Shown: piece by piece, positions 36,639 through 41,689 of the stretch
Numbering within the stretch: position 1 is the first letter of the stretch
Layout: each line of letters starts with the position of its first letter
Sequence record: MK327934.1
Length of the DNA stretch: 64,000 nt
Direction: 5' to 3' (one strand)
Source: Escherichia phage vB_EcoM_G2469
Notes under the pieces: generated by a model
Databases searched by the model: none
What the model was told of the DNA's origin: nothing
What the model saw: only the letters and a program-made list of their open reading frames with translations
Position numbers and translations under genes: made by a program

Positions 36639-36646
36639 TATAAATA
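36639..36646 (+). promoter_or_regulatory. late promoter TATAAATA on plus strand
   Basis: exact TATAAATA 45 nt upstream of the HNH ORF ATG; SD aagga. Confidence 0.5.
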
Positions 36647-36691: not shown

Positions 36692-37408
36692 ATGAATTAT
36701 AACTCAATATACGAAAAGCTTATCACCAATGCTAAATCAAGAAGTTTAGATGGTTATACAGAACGTCATCACATTATACCACAATGTTTAGGTGGAAGTG
36801 ATGATGCTTTAAACTTAGTAGACTTAACACCGGAAGAACATTATTTGGCACATCAACTGTTGGTAAAAATCCATCCAGATAATGCCTCTTTAATATATGC
36901 CGCTCGTATGATGACCATATCATCTCCTAAAGCAGATAGAAGCAAAAACAAATTATTTGGATGGCTTCGACGTAAGAATCAAGAAGTTCAAAAGAACAAA
37001 GAATTCACTGCTGAAACCCGTAAGAAAATGTCTGAGTCTGCAAAAAATAAACCAAAGATTACATGTCCACACTGCGGTTTAACCGGCACTGAAGGAAACA
37101 TGAGACGTTGGCATTTTGATAACTGTAAACAAGGCCCTACGCCTAAAATAGTAAAACTTGATCAAGAAACAAAAGATAAAATAATTAAAACCATGGCCAC
37201 GAAAATTTGGAAAGAAGATTCTTGCCCGTTTTGTGGCTTAACTACTAAGTTATCGGCGTTAAAGCCACATATAAAATTCTGTAAATCAAATCCTAACAGA
37301 AAGAAAAAAGAGGACAAGAAAATTAAATGTCCTCATTGCGATAAAATAGGGATCCCTGCTAATATGCATCGTTGGCATTTTGATAACTGTAAACATAAGC
37401 CTCATTAA
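36692..37408 (+). CDS. HNH homing endonuclease with three C-terminal zinc-finger repeats
   Basis: 238 aa; HNH core ERHHIIPQCLGG...NLVDLTPEEHYLAH; CPHCG...RWHFDNCK repeated; opposite strand to neighbours. Confidence 0.75.
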   Translation: MNYNSIYEKLITNAKSRSLDGYTERHHIIPQCLGGSDDALNLVDLTPEEHYLAHQLLVKIHPDNASLIYAARMMTISSPKADRSKNKLFGWLRRKNQEVQKNKEFTAETRKKMSESAKNKPKITCPHCGLTGTEGNMRRWHFDNCKQGPTPKIVKLDQETKDKIIKTMATKIWKEDSCPFCGLTTKLSALKPHIKFCKSNPNRKKKEDKKIKCPHCDKIGIPANMHRWHFDNCKHKPH

Positions 37409-39093
37409 GAGGCTTTCATTACAGTAAATCGTCCAACTTTGCTCATTTGCAAATGTTGTCCATAAGCTTGTGGGTCATGGTCTCTGTGACTAATTATAAA
37501 CACGTTTGCATCGGTTAGAGAGTTAAGAATTGTTGAAATAGCTTTAATACCTTCAGAATCAGTCGCGGAATCCATGACTTCGTCCATAATTAATGTATTG
37601 ATTCTAACACCAGAGACCTTTTCAGCGATATCTCGCCATGTAAACAACAATGCGATATCGATACGTGCCTTTTCACCTTGACTAAATGAAGCATAACTGA
37701 ATTCTTCACGTCCACGTGATTTTATAGATTCATTGAATTCTTCGTCAATAGAAAACACGTAATCAGCTTCCATGATTTTAAGATAATGGTTAATCTGCTT
37801 GTTGAACAGAGGCACATATTTTTTAATGATAGCACCTTTAATACCAGAATCTTTTAACATATCTGTGATAATACCACGATGGTATTTTTCAAGAACGATA
37901 TCCGATTTTGTTTTAATGATTTTATCAAGTTCTTTTTGAAGCAAAGCTATCTCATCGGCATGGTCGATAAATTCCGCCGAGGCTTGTTCTATTGCAGCTT
38001 TAACTTTCTTAGCTTTATCAATAGTGGCAATCATTGCTTGTTTCTTGGTACGAATATCAGATGCAATGTCCTGTTTAGTCTTAACATTAGCTCTATATTC
38101 GTCCACTAGGACACTCAGATTATCTCTGTGACAGGTAAGTTGCTCGAATGAGTGATTACATTCATGAAGCTTATCGGTAATCTTAGAGACAATAGGATCA
38201 CCCTGGTGCAACTGTGATGCACAAGTAGGACATGTGCCGCCATCATGATACATCTTAATAACTTTGTTATATGAGTCAATTTTAGATTTAATCAAGAATG
38301 CTTCTTGTCCTATCTTGTTGAATGCCTCAGTAGGGTCTTCATCAAGAACGATATTAAGTAGTCGCTCATTAGCTTCTTCTATTTCTGCTTTTAATGAACG
38401 AGCTTCTTTGGCTAGGTCGTCATACATATTCTGTAGACGCGCTACATTATCACCAGATAATTTCTTTTGACGTTCGATATTCTCGTTATAAATCTTAATT
38501 TGTTGGATAACACCATCTTTCTTGGCATCGAGAACTTGTCCCTGGGAATTAAGTTCTCGAACTTGAGACTTATTGATTTTATCCATTTCAGCGAGTGTGC
38601 CGACTTCTAAAAGGTCTTCGACAAGTTTTCTACGAGCAGGGGTGCTAAGAGCCATGAAAGGGGTATACCCTGCCGTCCCAAGCACAACTATTTGTTTAAA
38701 AGACGCGTATGACATTCCGATGCTACGTTCAAATTCTTCTTGGAAGTCACGACTGCTGGCAGATTCATCGAGACGAACACCATCAACGGAGATTTCGAAA
38801 ATATTGGGCTTTTGGCCACGTCTAATGAAGTATTTTTTATCATCGAATTCCATCCAAAGCTCAACTAAGAGCTCTTTCTTGTTCGTGCTATTAATGATTT
38901 GTCCTTTCTTAACATCACGAAATGGTTTACCGAAAAGTCCGAAAGTAATGGCTTCTAACATCGTAGATTTACCACCGCCGTTTTTACCTGTGATTAAGGT
39001 CTTTTGGACTTTATCTAATTGGATATCGATAAAATTTTGCCCAACAGACATTATATTTTTATAACGAACACGATTTAATTTAAATGTTTTCAC
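37405..39093 (-). CDS. 46: recombination endonuclease subunit (Rad50/SbcC-like)
   Basis: 562 aa; GTG start; Walker A GKNGGGKST; T4 gp46-like. Confidence 0.9.
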   Translation of the reverse strand: MKTFKLNRVRYKNIMSVGQNFIDIQLDKVQKTLITGKNGGGKSTMLEAITFGLFGKPFRDVKKGQIINSTNKKELLVELWMEFDDKKYFIRRGQKPNIFEISVDGVRLDESASSRDFQEEFERSIGMSYASFKQIVVLGTAGYTPFMALSTPARRKLVEDLLEVGTLAEMDKINKSQVRELNSQGQVLDAKKDGVIQQIKIYNENIERQKKLSGDNVARLQNMYDDLAKEARSLKAEIEEANERLLNIVLDEDPTEAFNKIGQEAFLIKSKIDSYNKVIKMYHDGGTCPTCASQLHQGDPIVSKITDKLHECNHSFEQLTCHRDNLSVLVDEYRANVKTKQDIASDIRTKKQAMIATIDKAKKVKAAIEQASAEFIDHADEIALLQKELDKIIKTKSDIVLEKYHRGIITDMLKDSGIKGAIIKKYVPLFNKQINHYLKIMEADYVFSIDEEFNESIKSRGREEFSYASFSQGEKARIDIALLFTWRDIAEKVSGVRINTLIMDEVMDSATDSEGIKAISTILNSLTDANVFIISHRDHDPQAYGQHLQMSKVGRFTVMKAS

Positions 39094-39940
39094 TTAAATT
39101 TTTCCTCATGAATTCAGAAACTAAAGCCTGTAAAGAACTTTGTATAGGATATCCTAAATTGACTAAATTTTTAGAAAAAGTCACATATTTAGGTTTGTTC
39201 ATTTTAACCCATTCAACGTAAAGCATATCAAAATTTTCCCAATGATATCCTTTTCTTCTAGATTTCAAATGAGTGTCTCTAACTTTAGGATTTTTCCAAC
39301 TGCGTGAAACTCCAGCCGATAATGATTCTCTATATTCGGCTGTTTTAGATATTTTACGACAAGCATCCAAATGTTTTTGTTTATTAATAGGGTCACTAAA
39401 CCACTTTTGGGTCATAATAGAGACGGTTTCTTTAAATTCCTTTGAACTTGTCATAATTCTGTGTTTCTTTAAATTTTCCGGATTTTTAAACCATGCTTTT
39501 AAAGCTTGACTAATCTTAATTCTATTATCCTGATTGGAATAGTATAATGTCATTTTTATAGAATTAACTTTACAAACATTTTCGAATTCTAAAGAATACG
39601 CCTCGGCTATATTATTTAGTTCATGCGTTGTACAATTTAAATTAAATCGCCCGGTATACATTCTTTGAAGCGCGTTAATCATCTTATGGTTGCCAGTTTT
39701 TGCCAAAATGCTATGTGCAATAAAATGGTTATAATGACTTAAATGACACAAGTTCCATTTACATGTTTTAAAATCTGGAAAAATAGATTTTGGTAGTATA
39801 TGGTGAACCTGAGTCAGTCCTTTTACTTTATTAGTGGAATTAGTTTTTATAAAGTTTAAATACTCATCAAGTCCTTCCCACGAAGGGAAGGAGGTTTTAA
39901 GAATTTTATAAATTTGAGTTTCATAATCAGTCTTCGTCAT
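39080..39940 (-). CDS. HNH-like endonuclease
   Basis: HNH-like stretch QVHHILPKSIF...NLCHLSHYNHFIAH; start set to ATG 39938-39940 with gagga SD. Confidence 0.55.
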   Translation of the reverse strand: MTKTDYETQIYKILKTSFPSWEGLDEYLNFIKTNSTNKVKGLTQVHHILPKSIFPDFKTCKWNLCHLSHYNHFIAHSILAKTGNHKMINALQRMYTGRFNLNCTTHELNNIAEAYSLEFENVCKVNSIKMTLYYSNQDNRIKISQALKAWFKNPENLKKHRIMTSSKEFKETVSIMTQKWFSDPINKQKHLDACRKISKTAEYRESLSAGVSRSWKNPKVRDTHLKSRRKGYHWENFDMLYVEWVKMNKPKYVTFSKNLVNLGYPIQSSLQALVSEFMRKNLSENI

Positions 39941-40184
39941 TATACGCATCCTCAATACACGCTTCAGCCATTTTAAGAATAGAGCCGGGAGTATCGTTGT
40001 CCATTATATTAAAGCTAAATTCAATAGCCCAGTCGGTGCAGACATGAACTGCTTTAACTTCATTGCCTTCAACGCGTAATGGCTCAATCCAATACTTGAT
40101 AGTGTTCTCGAATCCATCATCATCTTTAACGTCCATTTCAACTTCAAGCCCAAGCCCAGCATTGTTAAATTCATCTAAAGTCAT
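39927..40184 (-). CDS. small acidic hypothetical protein
   Basis: 85-aa ORF, ATG start, 4-nt overlap with gene 47. Confidence 0.45.
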   Translation of the reverse strand: MTLDEFNNAGLGLEVEMDVKDDDGFENTIKYWIEPLRVEGNEVKAVHVCTDWAIEFSFNIMDNDTPGSILKMAEACIEDAYNDED

Positions 40185-41200
40185 TGTGTTGCCTCAATAT
40201 AAAGTTCGTTGGAATATTTGACCAGCGCTTCTCTGTCTTCGTCTGAGATATCTGGAATCGCGTCAATATATTCTTTAATGATATCTTGAAGTGATTTAAT
40301 CTCGATTTCCTGGTCGTCATCAAATTCAACACTATTATCAACTTTAGAAACCATACGAAGAGAGTGAACTACTTTTTCAAGTTCAGATTCAAACTTAGTC
40401 AACTCTGAATCAATTTCTGATACTATAACACGTACGGCTAGATTAGTATAATCAGAATAATTGATTTTGCCTTTAAACGGATAAGTGATTCGTCGATGCC
40501 ATGTTGTTTCATTAGGAATAAATTCCATACGTTCAACATCAGTGTCAAATACCCAGAATCCGCGCGGGTCGTTCTCATCACCTGCAGTAAGGGTCCATGG
40601 TGTCCCAATATATTTGACGTTAGCAGCTTCAGAGATTGTGTGGAAGTGGCCGGACCAGACTTGTTTATAGGTCTTTAAGAAATCAGGTTCAAGCCCATGA
40701 GACTTCATCCCTTTATAGAAATAAAAGCCATTCAGTTCCCAGTGACCAACACAATACGCTGCAGAAGAAGTCTTGATGTGCTCTAAGATTTCACCTGTAT
40801 TTTCTTCACACATCCATGGAACGATATCAATCAGACATCCGTCAAAATCTACAGTAGTCGGATGCTCATAAATAGTAAAGTTTTCAAATTGAGTTAACAA
40901 TTCAGAAACAGTGTTAGGTGTTATTGTATTCTTAAACGCCATGTCATGGTTTCCTATCGTGACATGAACGTGAATGCCTGCTTTAGAAATCATATCAACG
41001 ATTTCACGATTGAATTCCATTGTACGATGTGTTATTGCTTTACGGACGTCAAACCAATCACCGTACTGAATCCAAGTTTTAATCCCGTGTTTCTTAGAGT
41101 ATTCAATTGCTTGTCGAATACCATCACGTTGAATATCTTGAACCCATGGGTCGTCTTGTTTGACTCCGATATGGAAGTCGCCTAAGTGCAAAATTTTCAT
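40181..41200 (-). CDS. 47: recombination endonuclease subunit (Mre11/SbcD-like)
   Basis: 339 aa; phosphoesterase motifs GDFH, GNHD. Confidence 0.9.
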   Translation of the reverse strand: MKILHLGDFHIGVKQDDPWVQDIQRDGIRQAIEYSKKHGIKTWIQYGDWFDVRKAITHRTMEFNREIVDMISKAGIHVHVTIGNHDMAFKNTITPNTVSELLTQFENFTIYEHPTTVDFDGCLIDIVPWMCEENTGEILEHIKTSSAAYCVGHWELNGFYFYKGMKSHGLEPDFLKTYKQVWSGHFHTISEAANVKYIGTPWTLTAGDENDPRGFWVFDTDVERMEFIPNETTWHRRITYPFKGKINYSDYTNLAVRVIVSEIDSELTKFESELEKVVHSLRMVSKVDNSVEFDDDQEIEIKSLQDIIKEYIDAIPDISDEDREALVKYSNELYIEATQ

Positions 41201-41243
41201 ATTATTTCCTCATTAGTTAATTCATTCTATCATCCGTTTATAA

Positions 41244-41271
41244 AGCAAAAAAGGAACTCCGAAGAGTTCCT
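41244..41271 (-). terminator. intrinsic terminator (ggaactc-UUCG-gagttcc plus U6)
   Basis: perfect 8-bp stem, tetraloop, A6 on plus strand. Confidence 0.6.
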
Positions 41272-41443
41272 ATCCACATAGTACACCGTACAGAGGCTCA
41301 TTTGAACTTTTAAATCGAATGGGCTTGTACGTAATAGTTCCTTCGGCTTTAGCTTTATCATAAGACTCTTTAAAACGTCTCATTCTTTCTGCTTTGCCTT
41401 TACGGATTTTATCGAAATTTTCAGAAGTCGGGATGTTCGTCAT
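41270..41443 (-). CDS. small basic protein (57 aa), not in ORF track
   Basis: MTNIPTSENFDKIRKGK...; ends at the terminator hairpin. Confidence 0.3.
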   Translation of the reverse strand: MTNIPTSENFDKIRKGKAERMRRFKESYDKAKAEGTITYKPIRFKSSNEPLYGVLCG

Positions 41444-41482
41444 GCATAATCATCTCTCAGAAAATACCTAAACCGATTTCTC

Positions 41483-41689
41483 TCATCGTTTCCACCATTT
41501 CTTAACTTGAAATGAATCGACCCACACGAGTTGTTTTGGGTCTGCCTTTACAATAGGCGGACAAATTTCTGTAATAGAACCGTCGTGATATTCCTTTTCA
41601 GAAATTTTAACACAAAGAGGACCTCCCAATTTAAGGGTGAACCCTGCGTTCAGCCTCAGACGTTTAAACTTTGTTTGAACTAGCGCCAT
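41483..41689 (-). CDS. small hypothetical protein
   Basis: start moved to ATG 41687-41689 with gagga SD. Confidence 0.4.
   Translation of the reverse strand: MALVQTKFKRLRLNAGFTLKLGGPLCVKISEKEYHDGSITEICPPIVKADPKQLVWVDSFQVKKWWKR

Follow-up and report, generated by a model that had tools for sequence, protein, structure and literature searches.

A predicted MobD-like HNH homing endonuclease gene in place of 46.1, directly upstream of gene 46 of Escherichia phage vB_EcoM_G2469

Mob-type endonuclease genes are an ordinary feature of T4-like phages, and the gene described here has already been labelled as one in public records. I-HmuI is a solved HNH nicking homing endonuclease that carries NUMOD modules. 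Within the Mob group itself, MobE is the only enzyme with demonstrated homing and nicking; its gene is promoterless, and in the recipient phage MobE makes its nick within the 5′ region of the gene that follows mobE (PMC2790892). The middle promoter of that following gene lies in the 3′ end of mobE (PMC2790892; PMC2988022). MobE has been likened to I-HmuI in overall design (PMC2790892). For T4 MobD, mobility has not been determined and the target is unknown, according to a review (PMC2988022).

The window, that is, the whole stretch of 64,000 nt that was analysed, contains a block of overlapping open reading frames that begins with gene 47 and continues through 46.2 and the endonuclease to gene 46:

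40181–41200, minus strand: gene 47, Mre11/SbcD-like nuclease (Pfam Metallophos)
39927–40184, minus strand: gene 46.2 homologue, 85 aa (Pfam T4_Y03C, E = 2.5e-44; position of T4 46.2)
39080–39940, minus strand: putative HNH homing endonuclease ORF, MobD-like, 286 aa (open reading frame list)
37405–39093, minus strand: gene 46, Rad50/SbcC-like ATPase (Pfam AAA_23, SMC_N and Rad50_zn_hook; annotations of relatives)

Neither gene 46 nor gene 47 is interrupted, and both are collinear with their counterparts in relatives. A preliminary description had placed an HNH-like gene between them, wedged so as to separate the two nuclease subunits. The frame does lie in that interval and does extend 14 nt into gene 46, whose start is at 39093, but it does not abut gene 47: the 46.2 homologue intervenes and overlaps the endonuclease start by 14 nt. 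The idea of separation is misleading, since 46.2 and 46.1 already stand between 47 and 46 in T4 and in all Escherichia/Shigella relatives without the insert that were examined. The 286-aa frame itself is real; the ATG at 39940 gives the protein described, which has full-length homologues at 45–56% identity. A longer form in the open reading frame list (39080–39955, minus strand, 291 aa) begins at TTG.

Three modules are predicted in the protein. An HNH (beta-beta-alpha-metal) nuclease at the N-terminus is followed by three NUMOD3-like helical repeats and then by a helical, presumably DNA-binding module at the C-terminus:

39701–39814, minus strand: HNH catalytic core, residues 43–80 (alignment, AlphaFold, profile alignment to solved HNH domains)
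39257–39547, minus strand: three NUMOD3-like helical repeats of ~32 aa each, residues 132–228 (repeat register, modelled helices)
39104–39256, minus strand: C-terminal helical module, residues 229–279

The HNH-like stretch QVHHILPKSIF...NLCHLSHYNHFIAH corresponds to residues 44–76, and H46, H47, N63, H72 and H76 (an HH-N-H-H motif) are invariant in an alignment of 115 relatives. Colicin E9 has the same HH-x15-N-x8-H-x3-H spacing. The profile search that the preliminary description had proposed as a check supports its HNH-like call, and the structure prediction is compatible with it. AlphaFold modelled a beta-beta-alpha core with confidence (beta 43–47, beta 64–68, helix 69–80/82; pLDDT 94 for the N-domain and 85 at full length), and the family profile aligned in register with the HH..N..H of the McrA (6GHC, E = 0.0057), Cas8f-HNH and group II intron maturase HNH domains. 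The endonuclease also matches PHROG 655, ‘homing endonuclease’, with E = 4.5e-31. Pfam HNH (PF01844) is matched by 40 of the 115 aligned relatives, HNH_5 by 15 and HNH_4 by 6, while the protein alone gave no significant Pfam or NCBIfam match, HNH models included; its Pfam HNH membership is thus transitive, coming from relatives and not from the protein itself. Searches of the PDB with phmmer and with a 16-sequence profile returned spurious matches only. By tblastn, the N-terminal part matches genes annotated mobC and mobE, and we therefore consider the conserved N-terminal Mob HNH domain to be shared with T4 MobE.

The less canonical Cys/His spacing remarked on previously holds insofar as Cys pairs are absent, yet this is normal for the Mob-type HNH core, because no Cys is found among the invariant columns. 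The suggestion of a degenerate enzyme finds no backing: in addition to the five invariant motif residues, the frame is intact in all eight carrier genomes examined (this window included), and dN/dS between lineages is 0.17–0.43. No evidence turned up for the other suggestion, an HNH-fold protein with another role.

Residues 132–228 follow the pattern ..E.R.K.S......W.NP....KH and presumably form a DNA-contacting linker. We call the repeats no more than ‘NUMOD3-like’: the pattern is similar and 59 of the 115 aligned relatives match Pfam NUMOD3 (PF07460), but the endonuclease itself has no NUMOD3 match in Pfam, even at E up to 1. Residues 229–279, presumed to be the sequence-specific DNA-binding domain, are the best-conserved part among the lineages located upstream of gene 46. 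The expected design, in which the HNH nuclease domain is linked to an extended region for DNA binding, is like that of I-HmuI, to which no search returned a sequence or fold match; I-HmuI is intron-encoded, whereas the endonuclease is free-standing, with its own frame between 46.2 and 46 and outside any intron or intein.

T4 MobD aligns end to end with the endonuclease (29% identity over 241 aa, E = 4e-20), and the two share the order of HNH core, helical repeats and C-terminal G.HW..D.LY..W.K.N.PK...F....LGYP module. Both are free-standing, but MobD lies between nrdC.11 and mobD.1, and with only 29% identity their targets are presumably different. Judged by its sequence, the gene encodes an intact free-standing homing endonuclease whose nearest kin in the T4 Mob (HNH) family is MobD; other records label it HNH, MobD-like or mobile endonuclease (F2, pEK20, SQ17).

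Comparative synteny of the 46–47 junction, also proposed in the preliminary description, showed that the endonuclease took the place of 46.1:

39919–39953, minus strand: 46.1 translation start captured by the endonuclease (matches the 46.1 start of G2285 and JK45)
39093–39918, minus strand: foreign segment of 826 nt replacing the 215-nt body of 46.1 (homology breaks against G2285 and JK45)
39201–39228, minus strand: candidate MotA-dependent middle promoter in the endonuclease 3′ end (pattern scan)
39091–39107, minus strand: new gene 46 initiation region from the insert, GAGG (39107–39104) and GTG (39093–39091)

Homology to G2285 and JK45 stops at 39919/39918 and restarts at 39092, and GC content is 0.28–0.32 within the foreign segment against 0.36–0.44 in its flanks. 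The captured start consists of GAGG (39953–39950), the ATG at 39940 and the first seven codons, MTKTDYE, and overlaps the 46.2 stop; the downstream end of the segment is exactly the gene 46 start codon. Phages without the insert have 46.1 in exactly that slot (four inspected). A search for tandem and direct repeats in the window found no target-site duplication at the junctions. No second copy of 46.1 (DUF5487) was found within the 64-kb window, and the gene is dispensable at its native locus.

With the insert, the gene 46 start codon changes from ATG to GTG; at least one public record instead starts gene 46 of a carrier at an internal ATG. The candidate middle promoter, ATATGCTTTA-12 nt-TAAAAT, lies 135 nt upstream of gene 46, and the strict MotA pattern has six occurrences on the minus strand of the 64 kb and one on the plus strand. 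The endonuclease gene of Salmonella phage Melville has a match to the pattern at the same position, and four insert-free phages scanned, T4 included, have none between genes 47 and 46. Because the site overlaps conserved codons (D-M/L-L-Y..W-V/I-K-M), constraint on the coding sequence may account for its conservation in Melville. Just upstream of gene 47 there is a terminator-like site (41271–41252) with a MotA-like site at 41250. Sites of sigma-70 type were no more numerous than in shuffled sequence, and no late-promoter consensus was found near the MobD-like gene. The initiation regions of the endonuclease and of gene 46, folded as RNA in insert-bearing and insert-free form, showed nothing to suggest a regulatory hairpin (z-scores −0.8 to +1.3).

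The endonuclease has no start signals of its own, using instead the ribosome site, ATG and first seven codons of 46.1, and is probably transcribed with the overlapping block of 47, 46.2 and 46. In this it resembles MobE, likewise without its own start signals and just upstream of a conserved gene with a polymorphic 5′ region, and the 3′ ends of both hold a middle promoter of the downstream gene, a candidate one here. MobE differs in its C-terminal domain, in its nrdA/nrdB locus and in having an activity mapped in vivo, the present enzyme being known from sequence; moreover, MobE sits in an intergenic gap, whereas the endonuclease replaces a resident frame in frame.

Its closest full-length relatives are the T6/T2/Aplg8-type proteins (45% identity) and those of Melville (56%) and the metagenome contig L013 (54%), all of which are encoded directly upstream of gene 46. 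The Melville and L013 copies directly follow gene 47 and, like the endonuclease, extend 14 nt into gene 46. In T6 the gene follows an intact 46.1 and opens with the first six codons of gene 46, the T6-type copy having inserted after gene 46 codon 6 with duplication of the gene 46 start; in T2 this copy is split into two pieces. The left junction in the window, where the first seven codons of 46.1 are kept and 46.1 is lost, is unlike those of T6, Melville and L013. Our literature searches found no paper on an endonuclease gene upstream of gene 46.

The gene is present in 9 of about 130 related (Mosigvirus-type) phage records. Its copies are 6–8 times less diverged than flanking DNA, with 10 mismatches in 3300 nt of endonuclease body against 95 in 4576 nt of adjacent DNA (Fisher p = 3e-13), in comparisons of phages with a 13.8% difference in gene 47. 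Presence and absence of the endonuclease each occur with both gene 47 alleles, giving all four combinations. Near-identical copies on diverged backbones fit recent spread, although the locus as a whole may share a recent ancestor, which could explain part of the low divergence. We think it probable that the endonuclease is active, or was until recently, as a homing endonuclease.

The target probably lies at the 5′ end of gene 46, judging from the place of the relatives upstream of gene 46 in three other lineages, the conservation of their C-terminal module, the T6-type insertion after codon 6 and the flanking polymorphism, which includes:

39028–39060, minus strand: gene 46 nt 34–66, ‘allele A’ (12 substitutions clustered in 33 nt)

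Allele A is common to all eight carrier genomes checked, and among 130 records 15 have allele A and 115 have allele B. It is a candidate target-site immunity polymorphism or co-conversion tract, or may simply be the background that the element first entered. It is not exclusive to carriers, as G2285 and WFL6982 have it without the insert, which weakens the idea of a strictly endonuclease-linked immunity allele. The only fixed flank difference between phages with and without the insert is G/A at 39093. The window-type sequence of AV112 stops short of that in the other carriers, ending upstream of 38998, which would fit co-conversion tracts of variable length.

We infer the homing mechanism, including enzymatic activity, nick or double-strand break, target position, immunity and promoter function, largely by analogy. 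In a mixed infection, and as for MobE (PMC2790892), the endonuclease would nick or cut a gene-free relative at or near the gene 46 5′ end or the 46.1/46 junction. The break would be resected and then repaired by phage recombination on the carrier genome as template, so that the recipient gains the endonuclease gene with its adjacent markers and loses 46.1. Protection of the carrier would come from its altered junction, from the substitutions that make up allele A (gene 46 nt 34–66), or from both. Gene 46 also receives from the insert a GTG start, a new Shine-Dalgarno sequence and possibly a middle promoter, and selection would therefore oppose deletion of the insert.

These same signals are one argument for a different history, in which the endonuclease no longer cuts and its frame is kept for carrying the ribosome site, start and perhaps promoter of the essential gene 46. 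The Shine-Dalgarno sequence, the GTG start and the MotA-like site do all come from the insert; the gene is rare (9 of about 130 records), the split T6-type copy in T2 shows decay in the lineage, and T4 offers precedents such as I-TevIII (PMC2790892). Yet the catalytic residues are all intact, no carrier genome checked has a broken frame, dN/dS values between lineages are below 1 and near-identical copies occur on diverged backbones, as recent spread would have it, and we consider such a defunct or domesticated enzyme unlikely. Still less probable, in our judgement, is an HNH nuclease that serves the phage, whether by excluding co-infecting genomes, by attacking host DNA or by making nicks at which the gp46/gp47 exonuclease could enter. 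The position of the gene inside an overlapping block with 47 and 46 would suit such a role, and gp46/gp47 are listed as possible players in the processing of homing breaks (PMC2988022); however, about 120 close relatives have 46.1 instead of the gene (four examples inspected), and the protein has the architecture and family membership of a site-specific homing endonuclease. Marker exclusion, for its part, would be this homing mechanism viewed from the recipient and no separate role.

A chance or mis-called frame with an accidental His-rich stretch is so improbable as to be negligible. Its sole support is that the protein has no direct Pfam match, and it is refuted by homology data, namely full-length homologues at 29–56% identity and the PHROG match (E = 4.5e-31), alongside a confident AlphaFold model. 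By our own estimate, a 286-codon open frame in AT-rich DNA of roughly 30% GC is far beyond chance.

The reading as a homing endonuclease matters mainly for annotation: the gene is better described as a MobD-like HNH homing endonuclease than as a degenerate HNH gene, and gene 46 of carrier phages begins at GTG. With near-isogenic phages that have or lack the gene, the locus is also a convenient natural system for an uncharacterised Mob enzyme, with gene 46 nt 34–66 as a candidate target or immunity polymorphism for study, and it would allow the study of a selfish gene that commandeers the expression signals of neighbouring genes and puts others in their place. More speculatively, one Mob-type lineage might have specialised on the first roughly 70 nt of gene 46 in at least three T-even genera, each invasion rewiring gene 46 expression, though we hold this to be doubtful. 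If true, the endonuclease would capture a resident start region for itself, and gene 46 would acquire a new ribosome site and an altered start codon, together with an internal middle promoter. As gp46/gp47 may process homing breaks, the element would also share its expression with the very machinery by which it spreads, and it could alter the gp46:gp47 ratio.

The window has another HNH gene on the plus strand (36692–37408), which also belongs to PHROG 655 and has the same HHI.P...NL..L....H..AH core, with 29% identity to the endonuclease over 70 aa. It differs in a C-terminal half of Zn-ribbon repeats, in its opposite strand and in a late-promoter consensus of its own, and its presence or absence among phages is independent of that of the MobD-like gene. 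The Aplg8 counterpart of this plus-strand gene is annotated as similar to mobB.

The 286-aa ORF reported in the preliminary description, with its 14-nt overlap of the gene 46 start, is present in the window, which derives from a T4-like coliphage whose nearest relatives are classed under Mosigvirus (Escherichia phage F2 is 98.4% identical over window positions 37000-41500). Judged from its sequence, it is predicted to be an intact, free-standing gene for a MobD-like HNH homing endonuclease of the Mob type. Public records label it 'HNH endonuclease', 'MobD-like homing endonuclease' or 'mobile endonuclease', and a literature search on the endonuclease lineage upstream of gene 46 found no paper describing it. 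The features of the locus are as follows:

41271..41252, minus strand: terminator-like hairpin ahead of gene 47
41250..41223, minus strand: MotA-box middle-promoter match from a pattern scan, ahead of gene 47 and just downstream of the hairpin
40181..41200, minus strand: gene 47, Mre11/SbcD-like
39927..40184, minus strand: 85-aa gene in the T4 gene 46.2 position (Pfam T4_Y03C, E = 2.5e-44)
39080..39955, minus strand: endonuclease ORF as listed, 286 aa counted from the ATG at 39940
39228..39201, minus strand: strong MotA-type match (ATATGCTTTA-12 nt-TAAAAT) within the 3' end of the endonuclease gene, 135 nt ahead of gene 46
37405..39093, minus strand: gene 46, Rad50/SbcC-like, its start overlapping the endonuclease stop by 14 nt

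In the ORF listing, 47, 46.2, the endonuclease and 46 form a series in which each ORF overlaps the adjacent one, the 46.2 stop and the endonuclease start again by 14 nt. The endonuclease thus sits between 46.2 and 46 and does not adjoin 47. The earlier view of a gene separating the two nuclease subunits does not hold. It has taken the place of gene 46.1, embedded in this 47-46 block of overlapping genes. In the relatives G2285, JK45, ST0 and WFL6982, which lack the ORF, the same slot holds the 79-aa gene 46.1 (DUF5487), as it does in T4. When the two alleles are aligned, homology breaks off at 39919/39918, directly after the common first seven codons (MTKTDYE), and is restored from base two of the gene 46 start codon (39092) onward. 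The 215 nt that form the body of 46.1 have therefore given way to a segment of 826 nt. The endonuclease uses a ribosome site, an ATG and seven initial codons that come from 46.1, and no second copy of 46.1 was found elsewhere within the 64-kb window. Gene 46 in the carriers received from the insert a new GAGG and a start changed from ATG to GTG; no flank difference other than this start-codon change is fixed between carriers and phages that lack the insert. GC content is 0.28-0.32 over the insert vs 0.36-0.44 in the flanks. In at least one carrier record, that of phage 172859UKE1 (L012, 490-2136), gene 46 is annotated from an internal ATG (Met14) and not from the GTG, probably a mis-call due to this start-codon change.

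By itself, the protein matched no Pfam or NCBIfam model. It did match PHROG 655 'homing endonuclease' (E = 4.5e-31) and PHROG 12434 'HNH endonuclease' (E = 2.4e-12), and T4 MobD can be aligned with it over the full length (29% identity, 241 aa, E = 4e-20). A profile search recovered 2948 relatives. In a 115-sequence alignment of the family, in which Pfam HNH, HNH_5 and NUMOD3 matched 40, 15 and 59 of the 115 sequences, the invariant columns are Y27, H46, H47, P50, N63, H72 and H76. The motif HH-x15-N-x8-H-x3-H is complete, with the spacing found in colicin E9. The best non-repetitive matches of the family profile among PDB sequences were all HNH domains with the motif exactly in register, namely McrA 6GHC (E = 0.0057), Cas8f-HNH fusions (E about 0.04-0.07) and a group II intron maturase (E = 0.06). 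These matches bear out the initial HNH call. The suggestion that the enzyme is degenerate finds no support, given the complete HH-N-H-H motif; as the invariant columns include no Cys, the absence of Cys pairs is normal for the family.

The AlphaFold model (pLDDT 85 over the whole length, 94 for residues 1-100) shows a beta-beta-alpha core, with strands at 43-47 and 64-68 followed by a helix at 69-82. Structure comparison gave no statistical confirmation of this fold; the weak Foldseek matches of the N-domain do include several HNH nuclease structures. Downstream of the core lie three NUMOD3-like helical repeats of ~32 aa each and then a C-terminal helical module, the most conserved part among the closest homologues. 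Across four lineages of the endonuclease dN/dS is 0.17-0.43, with dS near saturation, and the protein has therefore been under purifying selection.

Copies at ≥99% identity occur in only 9 phage records, in a comparison set of about 130 Mosigvirus-type records matching the adjacent gene 46 segment. Between four other carriers and the window, the insert body differs at 10 of 3300 positions vs 95 of 4576 in the neighbouring DNA, made up of 46.2 and nt 1-900 of gene 46 (Fisher p = 3e-13); three more carriers have intact ORFs with 1-3 mismatches. Gene 47 divergence reaches 13.8% between some carriers, and the endonuclease is both present and absent with each of the two gene 47 alleles. Among otherwise ~98% identical Mosigvirus-type phages, gene 47 (40181-41200) has two alleles that differ by 13.8%, and the 3'-terminal 789 nt of gene 46 (37405-38193) have alleles that differ by 8-10%; these occur in all combinations, and the region is therefore strongly mosaic.

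In all eight carrier genomes examined (Mosigvirus group), nt 34-66 of gene 46 are of the type termed allele A. Relative to allele B, present in 115 of 130 records, these 33 nt contain 12 substitutions, which alter three amino acids. Allele A also occurs in two phages without the endonuclease gene, and is therefore linked to that gene but not exclusive to it. In the carrier AV112, window-type sequence ends upstream of 38998, sooner than in other carriers, a pattern that co-conversion tracts of varying length would produce. In recipient phage, MobE introduces its nick into the polymorphic 5' region of nrdB, the gene downstream of it (PMC2790892); by analogy, we infer that the likeliest target here would be the gene 46 5' end or the 46.1/46 junction. 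The 46 locus with its endonuclease would suit as a natural system in which to characterise a Mob enzyme.

The candidate MotA-type site at 39228..39201 has a parallel in the nrdB middle promoter embedded in T4 mobE (PMC2790892), but it overlaps conserved endonuclease codons. Over the 64 kb, the strict pattern has only six matches on the minus strand and a single one on the plus strand. The Melville endonuclease gene has a MotA-type match at the equivalent position, and the 47-46 interval of four scanned phages without the insert, T4 included, contains none. Folding of the initiation regions gave no significant RNA structure. A perfect 15-nt inverted repeat has one arm in gene 46 codons 3-8 (39071-39085) and the other within the endonuclease ORF (39635-39649), and the arms could pair in mRNA across 549 nt; the repeat is AT-rich and partly palindromic, with an estimated chance expectation of roughly 0.03.

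The nearest homologues also lie directly upstream of gene 46, in differing genomic surroundings. In Melville (56% identity) and in metagenome contig L013 (54%) the homologue directly follows gene 47 and shares the 14-nt gene 46 overlap, and the T6/T2/Aplg8-type homologue (45%) is placed after an intact 46.1. The N-terminus of the T6 ORF (L005, 2932-3820) is a chimera. Codons 1-6 are those of T4 gene 46 (VKNFKL; GTGAAGAATTTTAAACTT), the next 19 nt, encoding DINDEF, are identical to a stretch of 46.1, and gene 46 then restarts, after a 15-nt spacer, with a second, slightly diverged copy of its own start (ATGAAATCATTTAAACTT). With the gene 46 start duplicated around the endonuclease, the T6 insertion point therefore lies within the gene 46 5' end. 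In T2 (NC_054931.1, 32922-33693; PV958097.1), the T6-type copy ahead of gene 46 gives a match split into two pieces, has two features annotated, and is probably frameshifted and decaying. More distant relatives are located elsewhere; P0004, for example (L014, 366-3193; N-terminal half 39% identical), adjoins a family-B DNA polymerase gene with an intein-splicing domain, another spot rich in mobile elements.

A plus-strand HNH/Zn-ribbon endonuclease gene (36692-37408; PHROG 655, E = 6.9e-67) is convergent with gene 46, overlaps its stop by 4 nt and is preceded at 46 nt by a T4 late-promoter consensus (TATAAATA, 36639-36646, plus strand). Its HNH core is the sole part in common with the MobD-like protein. 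The gene is found in F2 and G2285, and an Aplg8 gene of the same length and position is annotated as mobB-like; JK45 lacks it, as apparently does SQ17, whose match to the window starts only past the gene. Its presence is independent of that of the MobD-like gene.
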